The translations under genes and the position numbers were made by a program. 14,246 bases of DNA, taken from a virus (lineage: Duplodnaviria; Heunggongvirae; Uroviricota; Caudoviricetes). Positions 521 to 11,337 of this stretch are shown piece after piece. The stretch lies in the IMG/VR virus record IMGVR_UViG_2690316231_000009, positions 1 through 14,246 of that record, one strand, 5' to 3'. The stretch's first letter is position 1; each line of letters starts with the position of its first letter. The notes under the pieces were generated by a model. It ran no database searches and was not told the origin of the DNA. It saw only the letters and a program-made list of their open reading frames with translations.

Positions 521-616
521 AGAAATGAAAAAAGGCCACGCAGTTGCGCAGCCTGATAAACCCTGGTTAAAATCCACACGATAACAACACAACAATATCA
601 GTATCTCATGCTATTG

Positions 617-641
617 CCCGAACCCATTCGGGCATTTTTTA
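617..641 (+). terminator. Candidate rho-independent terminator, plus strand
   Basis: GCCCGAA (617-623) / TTCGGGC (628-634) 7-bp stem, 4-nt loop, followed by ATTTTTT (635-641). No plus-strand ORF lies upstream, so the terminated transcript is unknown. Confidence 0.45.
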
Positions 642-646
642 CCCAT

Positions 647-673
647 AAAAAATGCCCCTCCGGAGAGGGGCAT
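647..673 (-). terminator. Candidate rho-independent terminator, minus strand, downstream of the TerB-like gene and small hydrophobic ORF
   Basis: ATGCCCCTC (652-660) / GAGGGGCAT (665-673) 9-bp stem with CGGA loop; A6 at 647-652 gives a U6 tract immediately 3' of the hairpin on the minus-strand transcript. Confidence 0.55.
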
Positions 674-838
674 GTTTGCATGCACATTCTTTTTCTTGCA
701 TGGTGCCGGGTGCCTCCCGGTGAATTCAGTATCAGCACCTGAATCCGCGATTATCCCATATACCTGGTTGCTGATCGCCCCTCCGCACAGGGGGATTCAC
801 CATGCAGAAGTGTTTTTAATAAACAGCAAATAAAAAAA

Positions 839-1435: not shown

Positions 1436-1566
1436 CGTGACGTTCCTTTGGGTGGGTGAGCCAACGCCCGGGAGCGATCTGCCCACAGAGAAAGTCACAC
1501 TGACCACTCCGTAAGCTCCCCCCCGAAAGGCTCTGTGGTTGGTATGCGCCGGGCGTGGCGCAGATA

Positions 1567-1600
1567 CAAAAAAGGCCCGCAAAAGCGAGACGGGAAAATA
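1567..1600 (-). terminator. Weak candidate terminator after the tRNA cluster
   Basis: On the minus strand a short GC-rich hairpin (CCCG...CGGG) is followed by CCTTTTTTG (RC of 1566-1574). Stem is only about 4 bp, so support is weak. Confidence 0.25.
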
Positions 1601-1607
1601 AGTGTAG

Positions 1608-1681
1608 CGCGTTGTACTGGAGTCGAACCAGTGACCGATTGCTTAGAAGGCAATTGCTCTGTCCTGCTGAGCTAACAACGC
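1608..1681 (-). tRNA. tRNA-Arg (anticodon UCU); the 3' CCA is not encoded (genome gives CUA)
   Basis: Manual cloverleaf fold of RC(1608-1681): acceptor GCGTTGT/ACAACGC (7 perfect pairs), D-stem GCTC/GAGC, anticodon stem ATTGC/GCAAT with loop CTTCTAA (anticodon TCT), T-arm ACTGG-TTCGACT-CCAGT, discriminator G. Positions 1605-1607 read TAG, so the 3' tail would be CUA rather than CCA. Confidence 0.8.
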
Positions 1682-1694
1682 AGAATACCGATAA

Positions 1695-1771
1695 TGGACC
1701 ACCACCGGGGACTCGAACCTCGCGCAACCAGCTTCGAAGGCTGACGCTCTATCCCGATGAGCTAATGGCGG
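1695..1771 (-). tRNA. tRNA-Arg (anticodon UCG), with a slightly imperfect cloverleaf
   Basis: RC(1695-1771) = CCGCCATTAGCTCATCGGGATAGAGCGTCAGCCTTCGAAGCTGGTTGCGCGAGGTTCGAGTCCCCGGTGGTGGTCCA. D-stem GCTC/GAGC, anticodon loop CTTCGAA (anticodon TCG), T-loop TTCGAGT, encoded CCA. Acceptor stem has two G-U pairs, T-stem has one A-C mismatch and position 1 is C. Confidence 0.7.
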
Positions 1772-1778
1772 TATGTGA

Positions 1779-1854
1779 TGGTGGCCCTTGCTGGATTTGA
1801 ACCAGCGACCTGGCGATTATGAGTCGCTCGCTCTCACCACTGAGCTAAAGGGCC
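1779..1854 (-). tRNA. tRNA with CAU anticodon, most like tRNA-Ile2 (ileX/ileZ type); part of a phage ileZ-argN-argO-like cluster
   Basis: RC(1779-1854) = GGCCCTTTAGCTCAGTGGTGAGAGCGAGCGACTCATAATCGCCAGGTCGCTGGTTCAAATCCAGCAAGGGCCACCA. Perfect acceptor stem, anticodon loop CTCATAA, T-arm GCTGG-TTCAAAT-CCAGC, encoded CCA. Closely resembles E. coli tRNA-Ile2 as I recall it. Spacers to the neighbouring tRNAs are 7 and 13 nt. Confidence 0.85.
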
Positions 1855-1882
1855 GAGCCAAAAAATAATAATCAGATGAAAA

Positions 1883-2596
1883 TCAATAATCAAGCCCTTG
1901 CCTGGATACATATCTGTCTGGCGGGAAGCCATAATAGCGGTGAAATACAGAAATAAAGTAGGACCTGCTTGAATAACCGCATTTTTCTGCTATAGTCTGT
2001 CCATATCCATGCCGGGAACATAACATATTTACAGCAACACGCATCCGCTCTTCCAGCAACAAGCGACTGAACATGCCCCCTTCATTTTTCAGTTTTGTCT
2101 TTAACAAACTCTCACTCATATGCAACTGTAGAGCAATCGCACCAAGCGTCCAGCTTGCTGATATATCTGTCTGAATTATCGCCCTGACTTTGGCACTTAT
2201 GCTGGATAAACATCCACTTAAAAACAATGACATCCGTTCATCTGTTTCAAACAGAGACAGGCAGGCCATCATAAGAAACATATCCGTGGCCTCTCCGGAA
2301 AATCCCTGGCTGGTAATTAAAGCCGCAGCCAACGCAGGATTGTTGGGTTCCAGCAACAGGTAAAGCGGAATGTCAGTCAGACGAGTCCTCGTCAGCTTAT
2401 GCTGACTTTCCAGATATTGACTTACGACGGATTCGCTTATATCGACAATTTTAACTTTGCCATAATGCATAAGGAAAAGCTCCCTGATGCATTTGGTGGC
2501 CAGAACAACTGAGCCTGGCTTAAGTGACAACGTATCCTTTTCAAGAAAAATATTAATTGGGGAGCAAACCATGATAACTGAACAGACAACAGCCAT
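1883..2596 (-). CDS. AraC/XylS-family transcriptional regulator (prophage moron)
   Basis: 237-aa ORF; the C-terminal about 100 aa (SESLLKTKLKNEGGMFSRLLLEERMRVAVNMLCSRHGYGQTIAEKCGYSSRSYFISVFHRYYGFPP) is a typical AraC-type double HTH. AT-rich relative to flanking phage genes. ATG at 2596 has no clear SD; an in-frame ATG at 2572 is an alternative start. Confidence 0.8.
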   Translation of the reverse strand: MAVVCSVIMVCSPINIFLEKDTLSLKPGSVVLATKCIRELFLMHYGKVKIVDISESVVSQYLESQHKLTRTRLTDIPLYLLLEPNNPALAAALITSQGFSGEATDMFLMMACLSLFETDERMSLFLSGCLSSISAKVRAIIQTDISASWTLGAIALQLHMSESLLKTKLKNEGGMFSRLLLEERMRVAVNMLCSRHGYGQTIAEKCGYSSRSYFISVFHRYYGFPPDRYVSRQGLDY

Positions 2597-2717
2597 TATA
2601 ATTTTACTTTCATTAGCAATTGGTTAGCTCAATTATAGCCCCAAAAGGTAAATTATCATCAACACATAAGCAAAGGACTGACAGGTGTCGCCCCCCCACC
2701 AGCCGCCCATTCACCAC

Positions 2718-2744
2718 AAATAAAAAGCCTTCAGGACTGAAGGC
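2718..2744 (-). terminator. Rho-independent terminator of the small regulator gene
   Basis: GCCTTCA (2727-2733) / TGAAGGC (2738-2744) 7-bp stem with GGAC loop, overlapping the stop codon of the 2731..2928 ORF; followed on the minus strand by TTTTTATTT (RC of 2718-2726). Confidence 0.6.
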
Positions 2745-2928
2745 GTCTGTAACAACCGCACTGATAGTCTGCCAGACCCGCCATAACAAGCTGGGTCAGT
2801 ATTAACTGGCAGCGTTCGCGTGAAAGGTAAGTATTCTGCGCAATCTCCCCGACTGTCGCCGGTTCGGTAACGCTTAATTCATCAAACACAACTCTGGCGG
2901 TTTCTGTCATATCCTGCTGTTTCAGCAT
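2731..2928 (-). CDS. Small winged-helix regulator, PapI/FaeA-like (65 aa)
   Basis: ATG at 2928; own intrinsic terminator at the 3' end. MLKQQDMTETARVVFDELSVTEPATVGEIAQNTYLSRERCQLILTQLVMAGLADYQCGCYRRLQS has the size and helix pattern of PapI/FaeA-type fimbrial regulators. The family assignment is a structural guess from memory. Confidence 0.45.
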   Translation of the reverse strand: MLKQQDMTETARVVFDELSVTEPATVGEIAQNTYLSRERCQLILTQLVMAGLADYQCGCYRRLQS

Positions 2929-3053
2929 GTCTTTTTACCCTTTCCGGTTAACGTGACATACCAATAACTCTTGTCTAAAAAGCCAGCAAGATAAAAAGCC
3001 AGTATTCACGACCACCAGCGTGTTTACTGTACTGCACCAGGTTTACAGGTACA

Positions 3054-3137
3054 AAAAAACCGCTCAGCGGCGGGTTTAAGTTGTGTGGCGAAGTAACCAC
3101 TCTTAACAGCATATTTTATTTTTTACGATTGTAAACG
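3054..3137 (-). promoter_or_regulatory. Candidate promoter followed by a weak hairpin plus U7 terminator (possible Q-dependent late promoter / tR'-like element)
   Basis: Minus strand reads TTTACA (RC of 3132-3137), 16-nt spacer, TATGCT (RC of 3110-3115). About 40 nt downstream, CCGC-TGA-GCGG (RC of 3062-3072) is followed by TTTTTTT (RC of 3054-3060). The stem is only 4 bp, so the terminator call is weak. Confidence 0.3.
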
Positions 3138-3200
3138 GTTGATTATTCATCTCCAATAAAAATAATTGTGTGGGTATGCCCTTAACAATGGATAAGAAAC

Positions 3201-3647
3201 ATGAATAAAATGACTGTACTATTACTTAGCGCAACTATCATTTCAGGTTGTACTTCTTCCGTACCATTGATAAAGAAAACTCAATCAGGAAAACCTGAGG
3301 GGGTTTATCAAAATACGACAAAAGATAAAGTCAAAGATGCCCTTGTGAATTACTGCAATAGTAGAGGGTTGATAATTTACAACGCGGATAACAGCAGTGT
3401 TATATGTGGTAAAGAACTGGAAGGCGGCTCTGCTGTTTTTGGACAAATGTTAATCGGCAATGCCTATTCAACAACCCCGGTATCAAAAGTCAGATTTACT
3501 ATCGCTCAAGTTAATAACGATACAAAAGTGTGGGCCGATATGTGGATGGAAACTCAAATGGCAATGGGGCAAGTACAACAAATGTCTATAACAGACAACG
3601 CAAGCAAAAACACTATCCAACAACGTCTTGATGAATTAAAACCTTAA
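3201..3647 (+). CDS. Lipoprotein of unknown function (148 aa), AT-rich moron convergent with Q
   Basis: N-terminus MNKMTVLLLSATIISGCTSS has a positively charged n-region, hydrophobic core and lipobox ISGC. Markedly lower GC than surrounding phage genes. Opposite strand to the lytic operon. Confidence 0.7.
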   Translation: MNKMTVLLLSATIISGCTSSVPLIKKTQSGKPEGVYQNTTKDKVKDALVNYCNSRGLIIYNADNSSVICGKELEGGSAVFGQMLIGNAYSTTPVSKVRFTIAQVNNDTKVWADMWMETQMAMGQVQQMSITDNASKNTIQQRLDELKP

Positions 3648-3648
3648 A

Positions 3649-3686
3649 TAAATTAAATAAAATGGGGAGAATAAATCGACTCCCCA
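3649..3686 (-). terminator. Rho-independent terminator just downstream of Q, lying between the convergent Q and lipoprotein genes
   Basis: TGGGGAG (3663-3669) / CTCCCCA (3680-3686) 7-bp stem with 10-nt loop; on the minus strand it is followed by TTTTATTTAATTTA (RC of 3649-3662). Confidence 0.5.
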
Positions 3687-3727
3687 CACATTAAACTGAT
3701 TCAATTACCCCCTCAATAAGAGGTCTT

Positions 3728-4093
3728 CTAACGATCCATCTCTAGCTCAATTTCTAACATCATTAACATGCCATCAACTACACCTTCAGCTTTTTGCAAT
3801 AAACGCCCAACCCAGCAATCAGAACGCCCATGTTTACGGGCAAGCGCCATAAAAGTCATACCACCTACATAATAATCCACTAATAAATCGTGCAAATCGC
3901 TGTTGTTCTTTTTCAGGCGAGCCATGCATCCACAAATGATCATCGCGTCATCGTCACAACATTGCGGGCGGGATTTTACTTTTGAAGGGATTAGTCCTTT
4001 AAATCCTGCAGCAATAGACGACCAGGTGACATCCTCGTGATTATTTGCCACCCATGCCCCCCAACGTTCAAGAACCATTTGAATATCACGCAT
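3728..4093 (-). CDS. quuD: Late-gene antiterminator Q, QuuD-like
   Basis: Starting at ATG 4093-4091 (GGAG SD 7 nt upstream) the protein reads [75 protein letters not shown]..., which I recognise as very close to the DLP12 prophage antiterminator QuuD (YbcQ). The track start at 4108 is a TTG extension. Confidence 0.8.
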
Positions 4094-4110
4094 CAACTTT
4101 CTCCACAAAA

Positions 4111-5106
4111 TCAGGCCAGCACGCCAATTGCCAGCGCACGATCGATAAAACGAAATATCAGCTCCAGCTGGGAGCCATACTTCTCTTCAAATGCCACGGT
4201 ATCCGCATGCAGCTCGTCGTGATGCTTTCTGCACAAAGGCAACACAAAAAGGTCATGCGCTTTTGTTCCCATTCCACCCTGACCGTGACCTATCAGGTGG
4301 TGGGGATCATCAGCGGGCTTTCCACAACATGCACACGGCTGTGTCTTAACCCAGCGCGTGTACTTTTCATTAACCCAGCGGCGACGTTTTGGGCGTAACA
4401 TAAAAGACTCCGGCGACTCCGGATCCACTTTCAGCGCCAGCACCTTTTTCGCCTTATCCTGGATGATGCTGGTGGCAGGAACCGAAGGCACAAGGTCACT
4501 TTCCCGGGTAACAGACGGCACAACAGGCTTCGGTAATCTCAGTGCCTTACGGGCTGCACTTTCCGGTAAGGCATCCGCCAGATCATTACGAATCAGCCAC
4601 CAGCACAGTTCCGGCATTGTCACAACGTGACTGTCATCAAAACCGAGATCCCGACGCACAACAGACAACACCCAGCGGGCACAGTTATCCGTTGCCATTG
4701 ATTCCAGCCGTTCCGTGAACTGATCGCGCAGCTGGTTATCGCAGTGCCAGCACAGACGGATTGCACCCGGAGCGTGTCGCATTGTGGTCATGTTCTCGCT
4801 GTGCCAGTCGGAATGAGGCCACTGGCAGCCTTTTTCACGAAGTAACCAGCTTTCAAGACATTCCACGCCACCAGCACGACGGATCACTGCCTCATTGCGG
4901 AACACGGCCCGAACGGCAGGATCATCCGCCAGCGGTTGTGATGCCGCCGGAACGGCACCACTGGCGAAAGATGAATAACGCTCCGGCTCAGGCTCCAGCA
5001 GGACACGCCCCTGCATAAACAGGGGCATCAGCTCTGAACCTGGCCTGAACAATACGATCCCCATACGCGGGGCAATTTCAGGGGTCAGTAGTGCTCTCAC
5101 GGTCAC
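4111..5106 (-). CDS. DUF968-family protein (HNH-like Cys/His motif), lambdoid nin-region type
   Basis: 331-aa ORF; C-terminal [45 protein letters not shown] matches the DUF968 signature. GTG start at 5106 lies 1 nt after the KilA-N stop (coupled); exact start uncertain. Confidence 0.75.
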
Positions 5107-5107
5107 C

Positions 5108-5917
5108 TCAATGAACGGTATCGAGCAGCTTTAACAGCTCAGGGAATCGGGATTCGAAGAAATGCGGCTGCGTCTCGCGCGGATTTGCGGGACTGGTGAT
5201 GTTCTTGCCGAACATGCAGCCTTTCGCTGTCAGCGACCAGAATTTTTTGATGTTGTTAATCGCGGTACGACTGTATCGTTCGCGCTGCTCGACGATCCCC
5301 AGTTTCACCATCTGGTGATATGCCTGATTAGCCGTCAGGCGTATACCATACTGTTTCAGCAGTGCACTCAGTGACAGTGTCGGGCGACTTGAGCCATCGT
5401 GTGCATCAGCAGGAGCATCAATGGCATAGCGCGGTGCCAGATTCGGTAAGCCAACAGCCTCCTGGAGTTTCTGACAGGCACCAAGCACAGATGAGTTAGA
5501 CAGGTTTAACTCCCGACGCATAAAGTCCAGCAGAATCACACCAGCCTGCATCTTGTCAGCAGCCTGTCCGGATAATTTTTCCGGTGCGCTGGTTACCATG
5601 TCGAAAGTACGGATCACCTTAAGATGGAATGACGGGCTTATCCACATTGCATAGGCATACACCAGTTCTTTGCAGACATACGTTCCCCGTTCATTTCCCC
5701 CATGAATCACACTCACCGGGTCAACACCCAAATTCTGGGTGTTGGTCAATTCATGAACAAGTTCAACAGTTTGTTGGCTGGAAAGAAACTTTCCTGGCTC
5801 CTTGGTTCTGGCATTTGCACCAGATGCTACTGCTGCGCGATGTAGATCGTTCAGGCTGTAACGCCCATAAACATCACGACGAACTTCAATACCATCAATG
5901 ACCATCAGATTATTCAT
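5108..5917 (-). CDS. KilA-N domain protein (putative antirepressor-like)
   Basis: Best start is ATG 5917-5915 with AGGAG 9 nt upstream (MNNLMVIDGIEVRRDVYGRYSLNDLHRAA...); the track start at 5950 is an 11-codon extension. The N-terminal about 110 aa (...GGNERGTYVCKELVYAYAMWISPSFHLKVIRTFD) is a KilA-N domain. Confidence 0.75.
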   Translation of the reverse strand: MNNLMVIDGIEVRRDVYGRYSLNDLHRAAVASGANARTKEPGKFLSSQQTVELVHELTNTQNLGVDPVSVIHGGNERGTYVCKELVYAYAMWISPSFHLKVIRTFDMVTSAPEKLSGQAADKMQAGVILLDFMRRELNLSNSSVLGACQKLQEAVGLPNLAPRYAIDAPADAHDGSSRPTLSLSALLKQYGIRLTANQAYHQMVKLGIVEQRERYSRTAINNIKKFWSLTAKGCMFGKNITSPANPRETQPHFFESRFPELLKLLDTVH

Positions 5918-8362: not shown

Positions 8363-8583
8363 GCCACACCTCCCAGACGCTTAAACATTTTTCCGGAGCA
8401 AAAGGCTATAAGCGGCATACTGACGCGGTAATTACGGCCCAGCGGTTCACAAACCACCTTCTGACATTCACGGTCAACCAGGCTAACACGTAGAACATGC
8501 CCAGCAGGCGTGGTGTACCACTGACCCGGACGAGGACAACGGAAAGTATGATTGGTAAACCGTTTGAAAATATTCCGGATCAT
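8359..8583 (-). CDS. Hypothetical protein (74 aa)
   Basis: ATG 8583-8581 overlaps the TGA stop of the Rha ORF (ATGA). No recognisable motif. Confidence 0.4.
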   Translation of the reverse strand: MIRNIFKRFTNHTFRCPRPGQWYTTPAGHVLRVSLVDRECQKVVCEPLGRNYRVSMPLIAFCSGKMFKRLGGVA

Positions 8584-9740
8584 TTGCGCCCCCTTACCTC
8601 TGAAGGGTTCAGCGACAAATTTATGAGACTGGCCAGCGCCGAAGCATCATTAATATAGTCATATAAGCTAACAGCCAGCGGAGATTCGGCTTTTGCCAAC
8701 ATAGGATAAAGCTGCTGCAGCCAGACCTGATGAATTGATGAAATGTAGGAACAGAGAACGCTGGCGTTATGTGCAACGTCGCTCGGTACAGCGGGCTTTG
8801 AAAGCTGTTTCTCCATCTGGTTAAAGGCATTTATGTATGCCTCTTTGAACCGGGCAGCACGTTTACCCGTGAAACCCATAGCAAGAAACGCAAAACCGTC
8901 TCGTGTGATTTGATAGCAAGGGAGCTTGCGTGTACCACCGTTCGGTTGATTTACCGAAATCGATGTCTCCGCAAAATTGCGGGCACAAAACTCTGGGGAA
9001 CAATCCAGAGTGCGGATCTTTTTCAGCACATCGTCGTGACGCTTGGAGAAGAAGTTGGCAACAGCCAAAGAAGTGGTAACGGCCTGGCCGTTGTCAATGG
9101 TGATTTCAGGTTGAGTGAGGGCTGGGATCGTAGCCATGATGGCAGCCTCCGTTGACAGTGAAAAACTTCCACCACCGGAAACGCCAATTTCACTGGTGGT
9201 GAACTGGACGGGGTTGGCGTAACCGGCGTCAACGGAGACCGGCGCACCTTTCGGTGCCCCCGCCCAGCCCACCATAATCTGGATGTGAGCAAATGCGGAC
9301 GATAAAAAAGACGCTGGCGCGTCATACATCGCCGTTGACAATTTCAGGACGCCAATCCCGGCACCCGCTTTATAAGGTGCCTGAGCAGTGTAACGTCCCG
9401 GAATTGCAGAATCAATATGCTGGTGGTCCTTCACACTCAACAAAATCACGCCTGAATTTCCACAAAGGACTAAAGCACTCATGCGGGTAGTCTTTGCGAA
9501 GATAGATAACGCGCTGTGTTTCTGGCTCCCAACGAATAACATGGACATAAAGCCCTCTTCCGTCACGAAACCAGCGGTTAAGTTCCTGCACAACTCGCCC
9601 CCCACAGTCAGGTAAAGTTCTCTGTGGTTACTTACAGCCAGGTGATTTGGTAATCTGCATTCATGCCGTAACAACAGGTGTTCAGCGACGCTGACCACCA
9701 GCTGTTGCGACAAACGGTTATTTGCCGTTAAACTATTCAT
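8580..9740 (-). CDS. Rha-family phage regulatory protein with an about 200-aa N-terminal extension of unknown function; strong internal start at 9137
   Basis: 386-aa uninterrupted ORF. Residues about 220-310 (LAVANFFSKRHDDVLKKIRTLDCSPEFCARNFAETSISVNQPNGGTRKLPCYQITRDGFAFLAMGFTGKRAARFKEAYINAFNQME) form a Phage_pRha domain. ATG 9740 overlaps the CII-like stop (ATGA). An internal ATG at 9137 with GGAGG 8 nt upstream would give a 185-aa stand-alone Rha protein (MATIPALTQPEITIDNGQAV...). Confidence 0.6.
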   Translation of the reverse strand: MNSLTANNRLSQQLVVSVAEHLLLRHECRLPNHLAVSNHRELYLTVGGELCRNLTAGFVTEEGFMSMLFVGSQKHSALSIFAKTTRMSALVLCGNSGVILLSVKDHQHIDSAIPGRYTAQAPYKAGAGIGVLKLSTAMYDAPASFLSSAFAHIQIMVGWAGAPKGAPVSVDAGYANPVQFTTSEIGVSGGGSFSLSTEAAIMATIPALTQPEITIDNGQAVTTSLAVANFFSKRHDDVLKKIRTLDCSPEFCARNFAETSISVNQPNGGTRKLPCYQITRDGFAFLAMGFTGKRAARFKEAYINAFNQMEKQLSKPAVPSDVAHNASVLCSYISSIHQVWLQQLYPMLAKAESPLAVSLYDYINDASALASLINLSLNPSEVRGRK

Positions 9741-10644: not shown

Positions 10645-11337
10645 ATGAACATAGGAAACCGAGTCAGACAACTTCGCCAGGCGAAGAACATGAAAATCGC
10701 CGATCTCGCTGAAGCAATAGGAGTGGATGCGGCGAATATCTCACGCCTGGAAACAGGTAAGCAGAAACAATTCACTGAACAAGCCCTGAGTAATATTGCC
10801 AGGAGCTTAGGTGTTGATATTGCTGATCTCTTTACCTCAGACGTCAAAAGTAATACTGTATGTAAAAACAGTATTAGTGAGGATGTTGCGCAGGTGAAGG
10901 ATGTATTCCGTATTGAAATGCTGGATGTCAGTGCCAGTGCGGGAAATGGCCTTATCCAGGGCGGTGATGTCATTGATGTGATTCATGCCATTGAATACAG
11001 AACTGATAATGCTGTATCGATGTTTGGCGGACGGCCAGCCAATCACATTAAAGTTATCAACGTTCGTGGGGACAGTATGTGTCCAACCATTGAGCCAGGA
11101 GATCTCATCTTCGTTGATGTCAGTATCAATCAGTTTGATGGAGATGGTATCTATGTATTTGGTTTTGATGATAAAATTTATGTCAAACGACTGCAAATGA
11201 TACCTGACAAACTACTGGTGATTTCTGATAACCAGATTTACCGTGAATGGGGAATTACCAGCGAAAATGAACACCGGTTTATGGTCTTTGGAAAGGTCTT
11301 AATCAGCCAGTCACAAACCCTTAAGCGACACAATTAA
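10645..11337 (+). CDS. CI-type prophage repressor (HTH_XRE N-domain plus S24 LexA-like autopeptidase C-domain)
   Basis: 230 aa; N-terminal HTH (VRQLRQAKNMKIADLAEAIGVDAANISRLETGK); Ala-Gly cleavage site (SASAGNG); catalytic Ser in GDSMCPTI and Lys in YVKRL. No SD precedes the ATG at 10645. Confidence 0.9.
   Translation: MNIGNRVRQLRQAKNMKIADLAEAIGVDAANISRLETGKQKQFTEQALSNIARSLGVDIADLFTSDVKSNTVCKNSISEDVAQVKDVFRIEMLDVSASAGNGLIQGGDVIDVIHAIEYRTDNAVSMFGGRPANHIKVINVRGDSMCPTIEPGDLIFVDVSINQFDGDGIYVFGFDDKIYVKRLQMIPDKLLVISDNQIYREWGITSENEHRFMVFGKVLISQSQTLKRHN

Follow-up and report, generated by a model that had tools for sequence, protein, structure and literature searches.

A psrB-type AraC regulator gene and a small winged-helix gene in an Escherichia coli lambdoid prophage, very probably brought together by cassette exchange

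Among the described prophage regulators of the AraC family, PsrA and PsrB of Escherichia coli O157 are the closest to the locus treated here. The gene psrA is z1789 and psrB is z2104, the latter on O island 57 (OI-57), and the two are 90% mutually identical (reviews PMC10877973 and PMC8565820). PsrB binds the hdeA and gadE promoters and raises acid resistance in O157; like PsrA, it represses the LEE (locus of enterocyte effacement) type III secretion through GadE and YhiF, and PatE and PsrB act on the same segment of the hdeA promoter (PMC10877973, PMC8565820). A 2026 paper identifies psrA as ecs1087 in the Sakai prophage Sp4 (PMC13502914). In the literature on O157, PsrA/PsrB are described as activators of gadE, yhiF and hdeA. 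The stretch analysed, called the window throughout, comprises 14,246 nucleotides of the IMG/VR virus record IMGVR_UViG_2690316231_000009 and belongs to an E. coli lambdoid prophage whose early-right and late genes are on the minus strand. Our subject is the pair of genes at positions 1883 to 2928, an AraC-family gene and a gene for a 65-amino-acid (aa) winged-helix protein of the family phrog_331. These are very probably two separate genes, a psrB allele and a phage backbone gene, whose adjacency reflects cassette exchange at a phage moron slot and not a co-evolved pair.

In outline, the 237-aa gene would be a psrB allele, encoding a prophage regulator of the YdeO/GadX kind and probably served by its own promoter. 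Its product, if it behaves as the literature describes PsrB of O157:H7, would bind the gadE and hdeA promoters, activate the glutamate decarboxylase (GAD) acid-resistance regulon and, via GadE and YhiF, repress LEE type III secretion. The 65-aa gene is predicted to encode a stand-alone winged helix, and would be bracketed by two intrinsic terminators and preceded by a conserved promoter-like motif. Its ancestral downstream neighbour was probably an orphan beta-class adenine methyltransferase whose 5' leader is structured. A single replacement in the psrA/psrB lineage of E. coli would then have substituted an AraC cassette of about 800 bp for the methyltransferase gene and most of the leader.

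A psrB-type gene beside a backbone gene of lambdoid phages

The psrB-type AraC/XylS-family regulator gene lies at 1883-2596 on the minus strand and encodes 237 aa, an assignment drawn from Pfam and from identity to the Sakai copies. A sequence-only reading of the window had already called an AraC-family regulator here, and the profiles bear this out. The protein has the two C-terminal helix-turn-helix (HTH) motifs of the family, with PF00165 at 50.2 bits (cutoff 26.6, two stretches) and, together with it over residues 155-230, PF12833 at 39.8 bits against a cutoff of 33.6. It also matches phrog_1450. The nearest equivalogs in NCBIfam are YdeO (NF007407) and GadX (NF007432), whose cutoffs are missed at 108.7 bits against 348 and 87.1 bits against 500; judged by sequence, the protein is a paralogue of YdeO and GadX and no orthologue.

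The same reading had likened the gene to PatE, PsrA and PsrB, which was right and even understated. Compared with the full open reading frames (ORFs) of Sakai, the window protein is 98.3% identical to ECs_2191 of Sp11 and 90.3% identical to ECs_1087 of Sp4 (psrA), but only 37% identical to the PatE candidate ECs_0287 of Sp1. The Sp4 and Sp11 ORFs are 90.7% identical to each other, consistent with the published 90% identity of PsrA and PsrB. Additionally, Sp11 holds nleG2-3, nleG6-2 and nleG5-2, which we take to be the OI-57 effectors; ECs_2191 is therefore read as psrB and the window gene as a PsrB-type allele. Near-identity to PsrA and PsrB is accompanied by the expected location, the late region of a lambdoid prophage with a Pch/PerC gene: the late region of the strain E2 record, which matches at 100%, includes a PerC-family gene, and so do those of Sakai Sp4 (pchA) and Sp11 (pchB). 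The claimed position downstream of the Q antiterminator gene also holds. Q lies at 3728-4108 on the minus strand (PF06530, E = 2.1e-51) and defines the late region, with the tRNA genes at 1607-1854 on the other side of the pair. The AraC gene thus needs no new explanation, as PsrB would let the prophage raise the acid resistance of its host and tune type III secretion.

The AraC gene has two candidate start codons. In the Sakai annotation, ECs_1087 and ECs_2191 begin at an internal ATG, codon 43, which gives 195 aa and is preceded by a good Shine-Dalgarno sequence, AGGGAG; the upstream ATG of the 237-aa form has none. The long form is favoured because YdeO and the PatE candidate align over its N-terminal 42 aa, and both products may be made.

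For psrA, the prophage assignments are discrepant: the reviews put it (z1789) on OI-50/CP-933N, and the 2026 paper puts it in Sakai Sp4 (PMC13502914). In the resequenced EDL933 chromosome (NZ_CP008957.1 1625001-1700000; our comparison loci L005 and L006, where L numbers designate such loci throughout), the potBC-integrated prophage has Q and then a TerB pseudogene, with no AraC gene between them, so that psrA was not found at OI-50 there. The Sakai Sp4 and Sp11 loci were used as the psrA and psrB references instead of EDL933. The small RNA (sRNA) HnrS, considered as a psrA neighbour, was ruled out, being encoded in Sp9, Sp10 and Sp12 (PMC13502914).

The small gene lies at 2731-2928 on the minus strand, and its 65-aa product is annotated as 'TrmB family' or hypothetical. 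The phrog_331 profile matches residues 1-64 with E = 6e-37, and mEp460_052 belongs to the same family (E = 4.6e-26). An AlphaFold2 model, with a mean predicted local distance difference test (pLDDT) score of 92, shows helices H1-H2-H3 followed by a beta-hairpin wing, so that the protein is predicted to have a winged HTH fold. The best Pfam hit, TrmB (PF01978), stays below threshold at 17.8 bits against a cutoff of 25.6 (E = 0.003), and the RefSeq name TrmB reflects generic winged-helix similarity only. Searches for an HTH of the XRE type gave no HTH_3/XRE Pfam hit, and the protein has no Cys4 motif, only C39 being nearly invariant.

The sequence-only reading had described this protein as PapI/FaeA-like and had seen in the pair a module reprogramming host fimbrial or virulence regulation. 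Of the likeness, the winged helix stands and the rest does not. At E <= 1, hmmscan gave no FaeA (PF04703) hit. Against PapI, whose query sequence was verified against 2HTJ, hhalign assigned the small-protein family alignment a probability of 17.9%, with the core HTH in register at 20% identity, and a profile search of the PDB with the family did not recover the PapI structure 2HTJ at E <= 10. Nor was the fold found closer to PapI than to other winged helices. A co-evolved module, in which a PapI/FaeA-like co-regulator and the AraC protein jointly reprogram host fimbrial or virulence genes, would draw on the protein being a winged helix of about PapI size; in sequence and fold, however, nothing beyond the generic winged helix points to PapI or FaeA. 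No fimbrial genes lie near the small gene, the surroundings being a phage late region.

The small gene has an established place of its own. Q is followed by the small gene, by a gene for an N6_N4 adenine methyltransferase of about 350 aa, and then by tRNAs and stx or lysis genes in four phages: phiP27, SfV, mEp460 and Morganella phage IME1369_02. The same order recurs on contigs with 42-60% identical homologues, beside three Q families (PF06530, PF03589 and DUF1133), and the small gene is present in 60 of the 65 unique loci that combine the methyltransferase with its leader. It is a common backbone gene of lambdoid phages, and its conserved neighbour is an orphan beta-class adenine DNA methyltransferase. 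With 61 cluster representatives found at E <= 1e-3 in 1.84 billion proteins, the family as a whole is narrow; it spans 41-97% identity and several enterobacterial genera. Although found in 57 phage records and in 2142 of 5426 complete E. coli genomes (about 39%; 4064 places), and under purifying selection, the gene is unstudied.

Probable cassette exchange at the moron slot

The replacement is visible as a break in homology. By blastn, the window matches the phiP27 and SfV loci over 2660/2665-3076/3115, which covers the small gene and its flanks, and no homology follows between there and the tRNAs; the tRNA segment itself (1557-1858) is homologous to phiP27 only. The AraC-type loci, namely Sakai Sp4 and Sp11 and the phage phiSTEC1575-Stx2k, align straight through the intervening region and all have the identical left junction, which suggests a single ancestral event. 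We thus delimit a psrA/B cassette of about 800 bp at 1859-2659, which stands in place of the methyltransferase gene and of two-thirds of its leader, the 3' part.

The distribution of the two genes is asymmetric. The AraC gene occurs in 726 of the 5426 complete genomes (about 13%; 1324 places), usually in two copies in O157:H7. A query spanning the junction is covered to at least 80% in 697 genomes, about 96% of the AraC carriers; in about 1300 others, only its small-gene side is matched. So the AraC gene comes with the small gene in nearly every case, but the latter can do without the former. Together with the homology break, this asymmetry leads us to read the adjacency as the outcome of cassette exchange. 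The pairing, which the sequence-only reading could not place, can be placed after all: it is standard at both O157 Sakai loci, psrA (ECs_1086-1087) and psrB (ECs_2192-2191), and in about one complete E. coli genome in eight.

Further copies of the cassette were seen in passing. In Escherichia phage phiSTEC1575-Stx2k (L002, OQ243220.1), positions 2718-5399 hold the small gene, a PsrA/B-like AraC gene (91% aa identity) and the tRNAs, directly upstream of stx2k A and B, a position that TerB and DUF3927 genes take in the window. In one E. coli genome (L015:4333-6382), the psrA/B-type gene is split by an insertion of the IS3 family of insertion sequences (IS).

The two genes also look like separate transcription units at the level of sequence signals, because a terminator lies between them and a promoter-like site precedes the AraC gene. 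The former is an intrinsic-terminator-like hairpin at 2727-2744 on the minus strand, GCCTTCAGTCCTGAAGGC followed by the T-run TTTTTATTTG, which was found by pattern scan and is seen in the minimum free energy fold. A terminator belonging to the pair had been claimed at 2718-2744; the hairpin and T-run do exist at 2744-2727, but, overlapping the small ORF's stop codon, they sit between the two genes and do not close a two-gene unit. The hairpin is kept in the E. coli-group loci, while the phiP27 version has altered loop bases and the mEp460 version altered stem bases. Hairpins in 2655-2765 are no stabler than shuffled sequence (z = 0.04); pattern and conservation, rather than folding energy, therefore support the terminator call. 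A sigma-70-like promoter candidate for the AraC gene, ATGATA-16-TATAAT at 2632-2659 on the minus strand (consensus scan, 10/12 matches), lies 3' of this hairpin and 35 nt upstream of the AraC start. Its -35 element forms the left edge of the region absent in methylase-type loci, at the homology break near 2660.

Upstream of the small gene lie two further signals. A promoter-like motif, TTGCTG-N17-TATTGG, was identified by alignment at 2961-2989 on the minus strand and may serve the small gene; the form TTGCTG-N17-TAYNNN is conserved as far as Morganella-type loci, with a weak -10 element. No block other than this motif and the terminator is shared by every upstream region aligned, among which are the Morganella and Providencia-like loci (CTTGCTG ... 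AGAGTTA). The intrinsic terminator, a candidate of the tR' type found by pattern scan at 3051-3073 on the minus strand, stands at the left edge of the conserved block. It aligns with the annotated SfV terminator between Q and orf47, and its stem pairing is kept with different sequence in the loci L011, L023 and L028. Base composition differs between the genes as well. Both had been called AT-rich, which is true of the AraC gene (43.7% GC) but not of the small gene (50.5%, against 48.5% in the window).

Selection on the small gene speaks to a further alternative, in which its copies in AraC-type loci are functionless relics left after the methyltransferase was displaced. The missing conserved neighbour would fit such a decay, as would the Sakai Sp4 copy ECs_1086 (L007:18343-18582), where a 1-nt deletion at codon 49 yields a 79-aa product without the wing. 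The ORF is intact, however, in the window, in Sp11, in the Stx2k phage and in 10 of 10 sampled contexts. Among AraC-linked copies, the ratio of nonsynonymous to synonymous divergence (dN/dS) is 0.03-0.19 with dS up to 0.28, although recombination with methylase-type loci could mimic this; for the window against the Stx2k phage, dS is 0.28 and dN 0.014, a ratio of 0.05. Strong purifying selection is thus seen even between AraC-linked copies, so the gene is not obviously a relic, and we regard this alternative as quite improbable.

Linkage speaks for the co-evolved module: about 96% of the genomes with the AraC gene keep the adjacency, as do all 10 contexts sampled for the exact small-protein allele. 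The module has to contend, beyond the missing PapI signal, with a small gene that is three times as widespread as the AraC gene and whose partner in every other lineage is a methyltransferase. The terminator and separate promoter-like site between the genes speak against it too, as does the homology break, from which the AraC gene appears to have arrived as a separate cassette. In Sakai, moreover, the frameshifted copy stands beside psrA, which argues that PsrA is independent of the small protein. A module of this kind is hardly credible, and a joint role of the pair in reprogramming host fimbrial or virulence regulation is not supported. Had both genes proved common components of the phage lineage, the earlier interpretation would have been undercut altogether; this applies to one half of the pair, the small gene. 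Taken as a whole, that reading was partly confirmed in what it observed and partly supported in how it interpreted it.

Several points weigh against the reading of two separate genes joined by cassette exchange. The promoters named here are consensus matches only. The exact 65-aa allele has the AraC gene downstream in all 10 of the sampled contexts, once interrupted by an IS, and together with the dN/dS of 0.03-0.19 of the AraC-adjacent copies this leaves room for a functional link between the genes. Judged by its predicted fold and its position, the small protein would most probably be a small regulator that binds nucleic acid and serves the phage itself, a role that is itself inferred. ECs_2191 is equated with psrB through identity and island content, not through a PsrB-labelled sequence. 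The window allele differs from the Sakai Sp11 copy by four amino acids, and the PsrB function ascribed to it comes from the literature. Finally, a commensal-type E. coli of poultry or cattle is the apparent host, and it may be without the LEE.

The structured leader of the methyltransferase gene

In lambdoid phages, a structured leader of about 130-140 nt separates the phrog_331 gene from the N6_N4 methyltransferase gene. It was located in SfV (L009:3215-3354, plus strand), L003:4892-5032 (minus strand), L010:3225-3364, L011:3203-3343, L027:2478-2617 and L028:3711-3849. It is more conserved than either ORF; in one example, the nucleotide identity of the leader is 84%, against 42% for the small protein and 62% for the methyltransferase. 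In a covariation set of 26 sequences, mutually less than 97% identical, a five-helix structure has 95.7% of its cells paired, compared with 23-38% when the partners are slid. Compensatory changes occur in 7 pairs, a number reached by 0 of 500 shuffles, and one pair takes the forms C-G (10), U-A (10) and A-U (4). In one helix, the bases immediately 5' of the methyltransferase start codon, an invariant GATC among them, are paired, and another helix competes with the base of the first hairpin; the competing helices and the paired start region suggest a switch. The methyltransferase has no obvious Shine-Dalgarno sequence, and Rfam holds no family matching its leader.

A degenerate remnant of this leader, its first hairpin, persists in the window at 2660-2726 on the minus strand, as seen by alignment and by covariance model. 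The model (R1) scores 110-162 bits in methylase-type loci against 26.7 bits at window 2576-2711 on the minus strand, where only the first hairpin survives; the remnant still folds, with G-U pairs. What the cassette displaced was thus a methyltransferase gene with a conserved leader whose structure is supported by covariation. If this holds, lambdoid phages of enterobacteria would have in the leader a new cis-regulatory RNA motif; most of the leader lies outside the window.

The leader and the small gene can also be found apart. The small gene is missing from 5 of the 65 unique leader-plus-methyltransferase loci, and in Providencia-like loci the small gene and the methyltransferase are both present but the leader is absent; the leader therefore looks like the methyltransferase's own cis-element. 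An obligate coupling of small protein and leader, of the kind known for Com, was considered and is weakened by each being found without the other.

These observations bear on a different functional link, by analogy with the C proteins of restriction-modification systems or with Mu Com and mom, in which the small protein controls the gene downstream of it: it would once have timed the methyltransferase and would now modulate psrB by position. The synteny with the methyltransferase is very conserved, the leader covaries and pairs the GATC bases before the methyltransferase start, and the first leader hairpin, with a shared 70 bp, persists directly upstream of the psrB promoter-like site, all of which such control would account for, along with the purifying selection that continues in AraC-type loci. 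It is opposed by the loci just named, which exclude a strict dependence, by the intrinsic terminator between the genes, and by a fold that differs from both the XRE-type HTH of C proteins and the zinc finger of Com. In the alignment of small-gene loci, no operator dyad or C-box was recognised by eye. Such positional control seems unlikely on balance. In a broader form, the phrog_331 protein would regulate whatever gene follows it, ancestrally the orphan adenine methyltransferase, and would have been co-opted in psrA/psrB prophages, tying a regulator of acid resistance and type III secretion to the lysogenic or late state, with the leader standing separately as a new RNA motif; to this we accord a low probability.

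Surroundings of the locus and comparison with described systems

In keeping with cassette exchange, the locus is best read as a slot consisting of a terminator, the small winged-helix gene, a second terminator, either the methyltransferase or psrA/B, and the tRNAs. The right border of the cassette is the tRNA cluster at 1607-1854 on the minus strand, comprising a CAU-anticodon tRNA of the Met/Ile2 type, Arg-UCG and Arg-UCU (ARAGORN, Rfam and the Sakai annotation of equivalent loci), which is the ileZ-argN-argO set of Stx-type (Shiga toxin) phages. On the other side, a 148-aa lipoprotein gene of phrog_3152, a family of unknown function, lies antisense between Q and the small gene at 3201-3647 on the plus strand, with a GC content of 0.37-0.40 in 300-nt windows and its own promoter-like site at 3182-3211. 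Other prophages hold different genes here, among them a CAAX protease and a GIY-YIG nuclease, which makes this interval a second variable site for morons. A search of 2597-3200 against Rfam gave no known sRNA or cis-element at E <= 0.1, and PADLOC, run on the small, AraC, lipoprotein and TerB proteins, found nothing meaningful that would point to a defence role.

Farther along, the window contains a TerB-family gene at 1003-1464, a cI-like repressor gene at 10645-11337 on the plus strand, and replication, Dam-like methylase, RusA, KilA-N and DUF968 genes. Downstream of the TerB gene, Rfam matches above their gathering scores were obtained for AgvB, the anti-GcvB sRNA (579-640, plus strand; 96.5 bits), and for the sRNA STnc100 (641-831, minus strand; 143 bits). 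Matches to the C4 antisense RNA (9192-9279, minus strand; 81.4 bits) and to isrK (9304-9380, minus strand; 62.2 bits) lie upstream of a 386-aa Rha/antirepressor-like ORF at 8580-9740 on the minus strand; this is a P1/P7-type c4-ant immunity element within a lambdoid prophage. Positions 1500-3750 match E. coli chromosomes from chickens and cattle at a reported identity of 100.0%, and the best-matching record continues downstream with DUF3927, SASA esterase, holin, lysozyme, PerC-family and terminase genes. The same cassette thus circulates in non-O157 E. coli of poultry and cattle, and in one Stx phage it lies directly upstream of stx2k. The new points are modest, and they leave the current understanding unchanged.

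Set against the described systems, the locus is the known psrB locus, and what is new about it is the cassette-swap reading, the phrog_331 protein and the unannotated leader. With PsrA and PsrB it shares the 237-aa ORF, the slot bounded by Q and by the ileZ/argN/argO tRNAs, the small gene upstream and a Pch/PerC gene in the late region. It differs from them in its Q, which is of the P27-like PF06530 type as opposed to DUF1133 in Sakai, in the lipoprotein moron between Q and the small gene, and in an apparently non-O157 host. YdeO, GadX and PatE have the same family and architecture, the alignment with YdeO being full-length (residues 1-229); the PatE candidate ECs_0287, in contrast, lies at the end of a prophage remnant, outside the Q-tRNA slot.

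For the small protein, PapI and FaeA (PF04703; 2HTJ) are alike in being small stand-alone winged helices of similar size. Its true homologues are phiP27 L23, SfV orf47 and mEp460_052, at 97%, 92% and 51% identity, which occupy the same place after Q and its terminator; there, however, the next gene is the N6_N4 DNA methyltransferase with its 130-nt structured leader, whereas the window has psrB. C (controller) proteins have an XRE-type HTH and act at C-box operators, and Mu Com is a Cys4 zinc-finger protein that binds leader RNA. The ancestral arrangement before the methyltransferase may be likened to these systems, Mu Com standing before mom, in having a small gene of about 65 aa, a regulatory leader with alternative helices close to the start codon and a DNA-modifying enzyme in a phage late region; the small protein is nevertheless set apart from them as a predicted winged helix.

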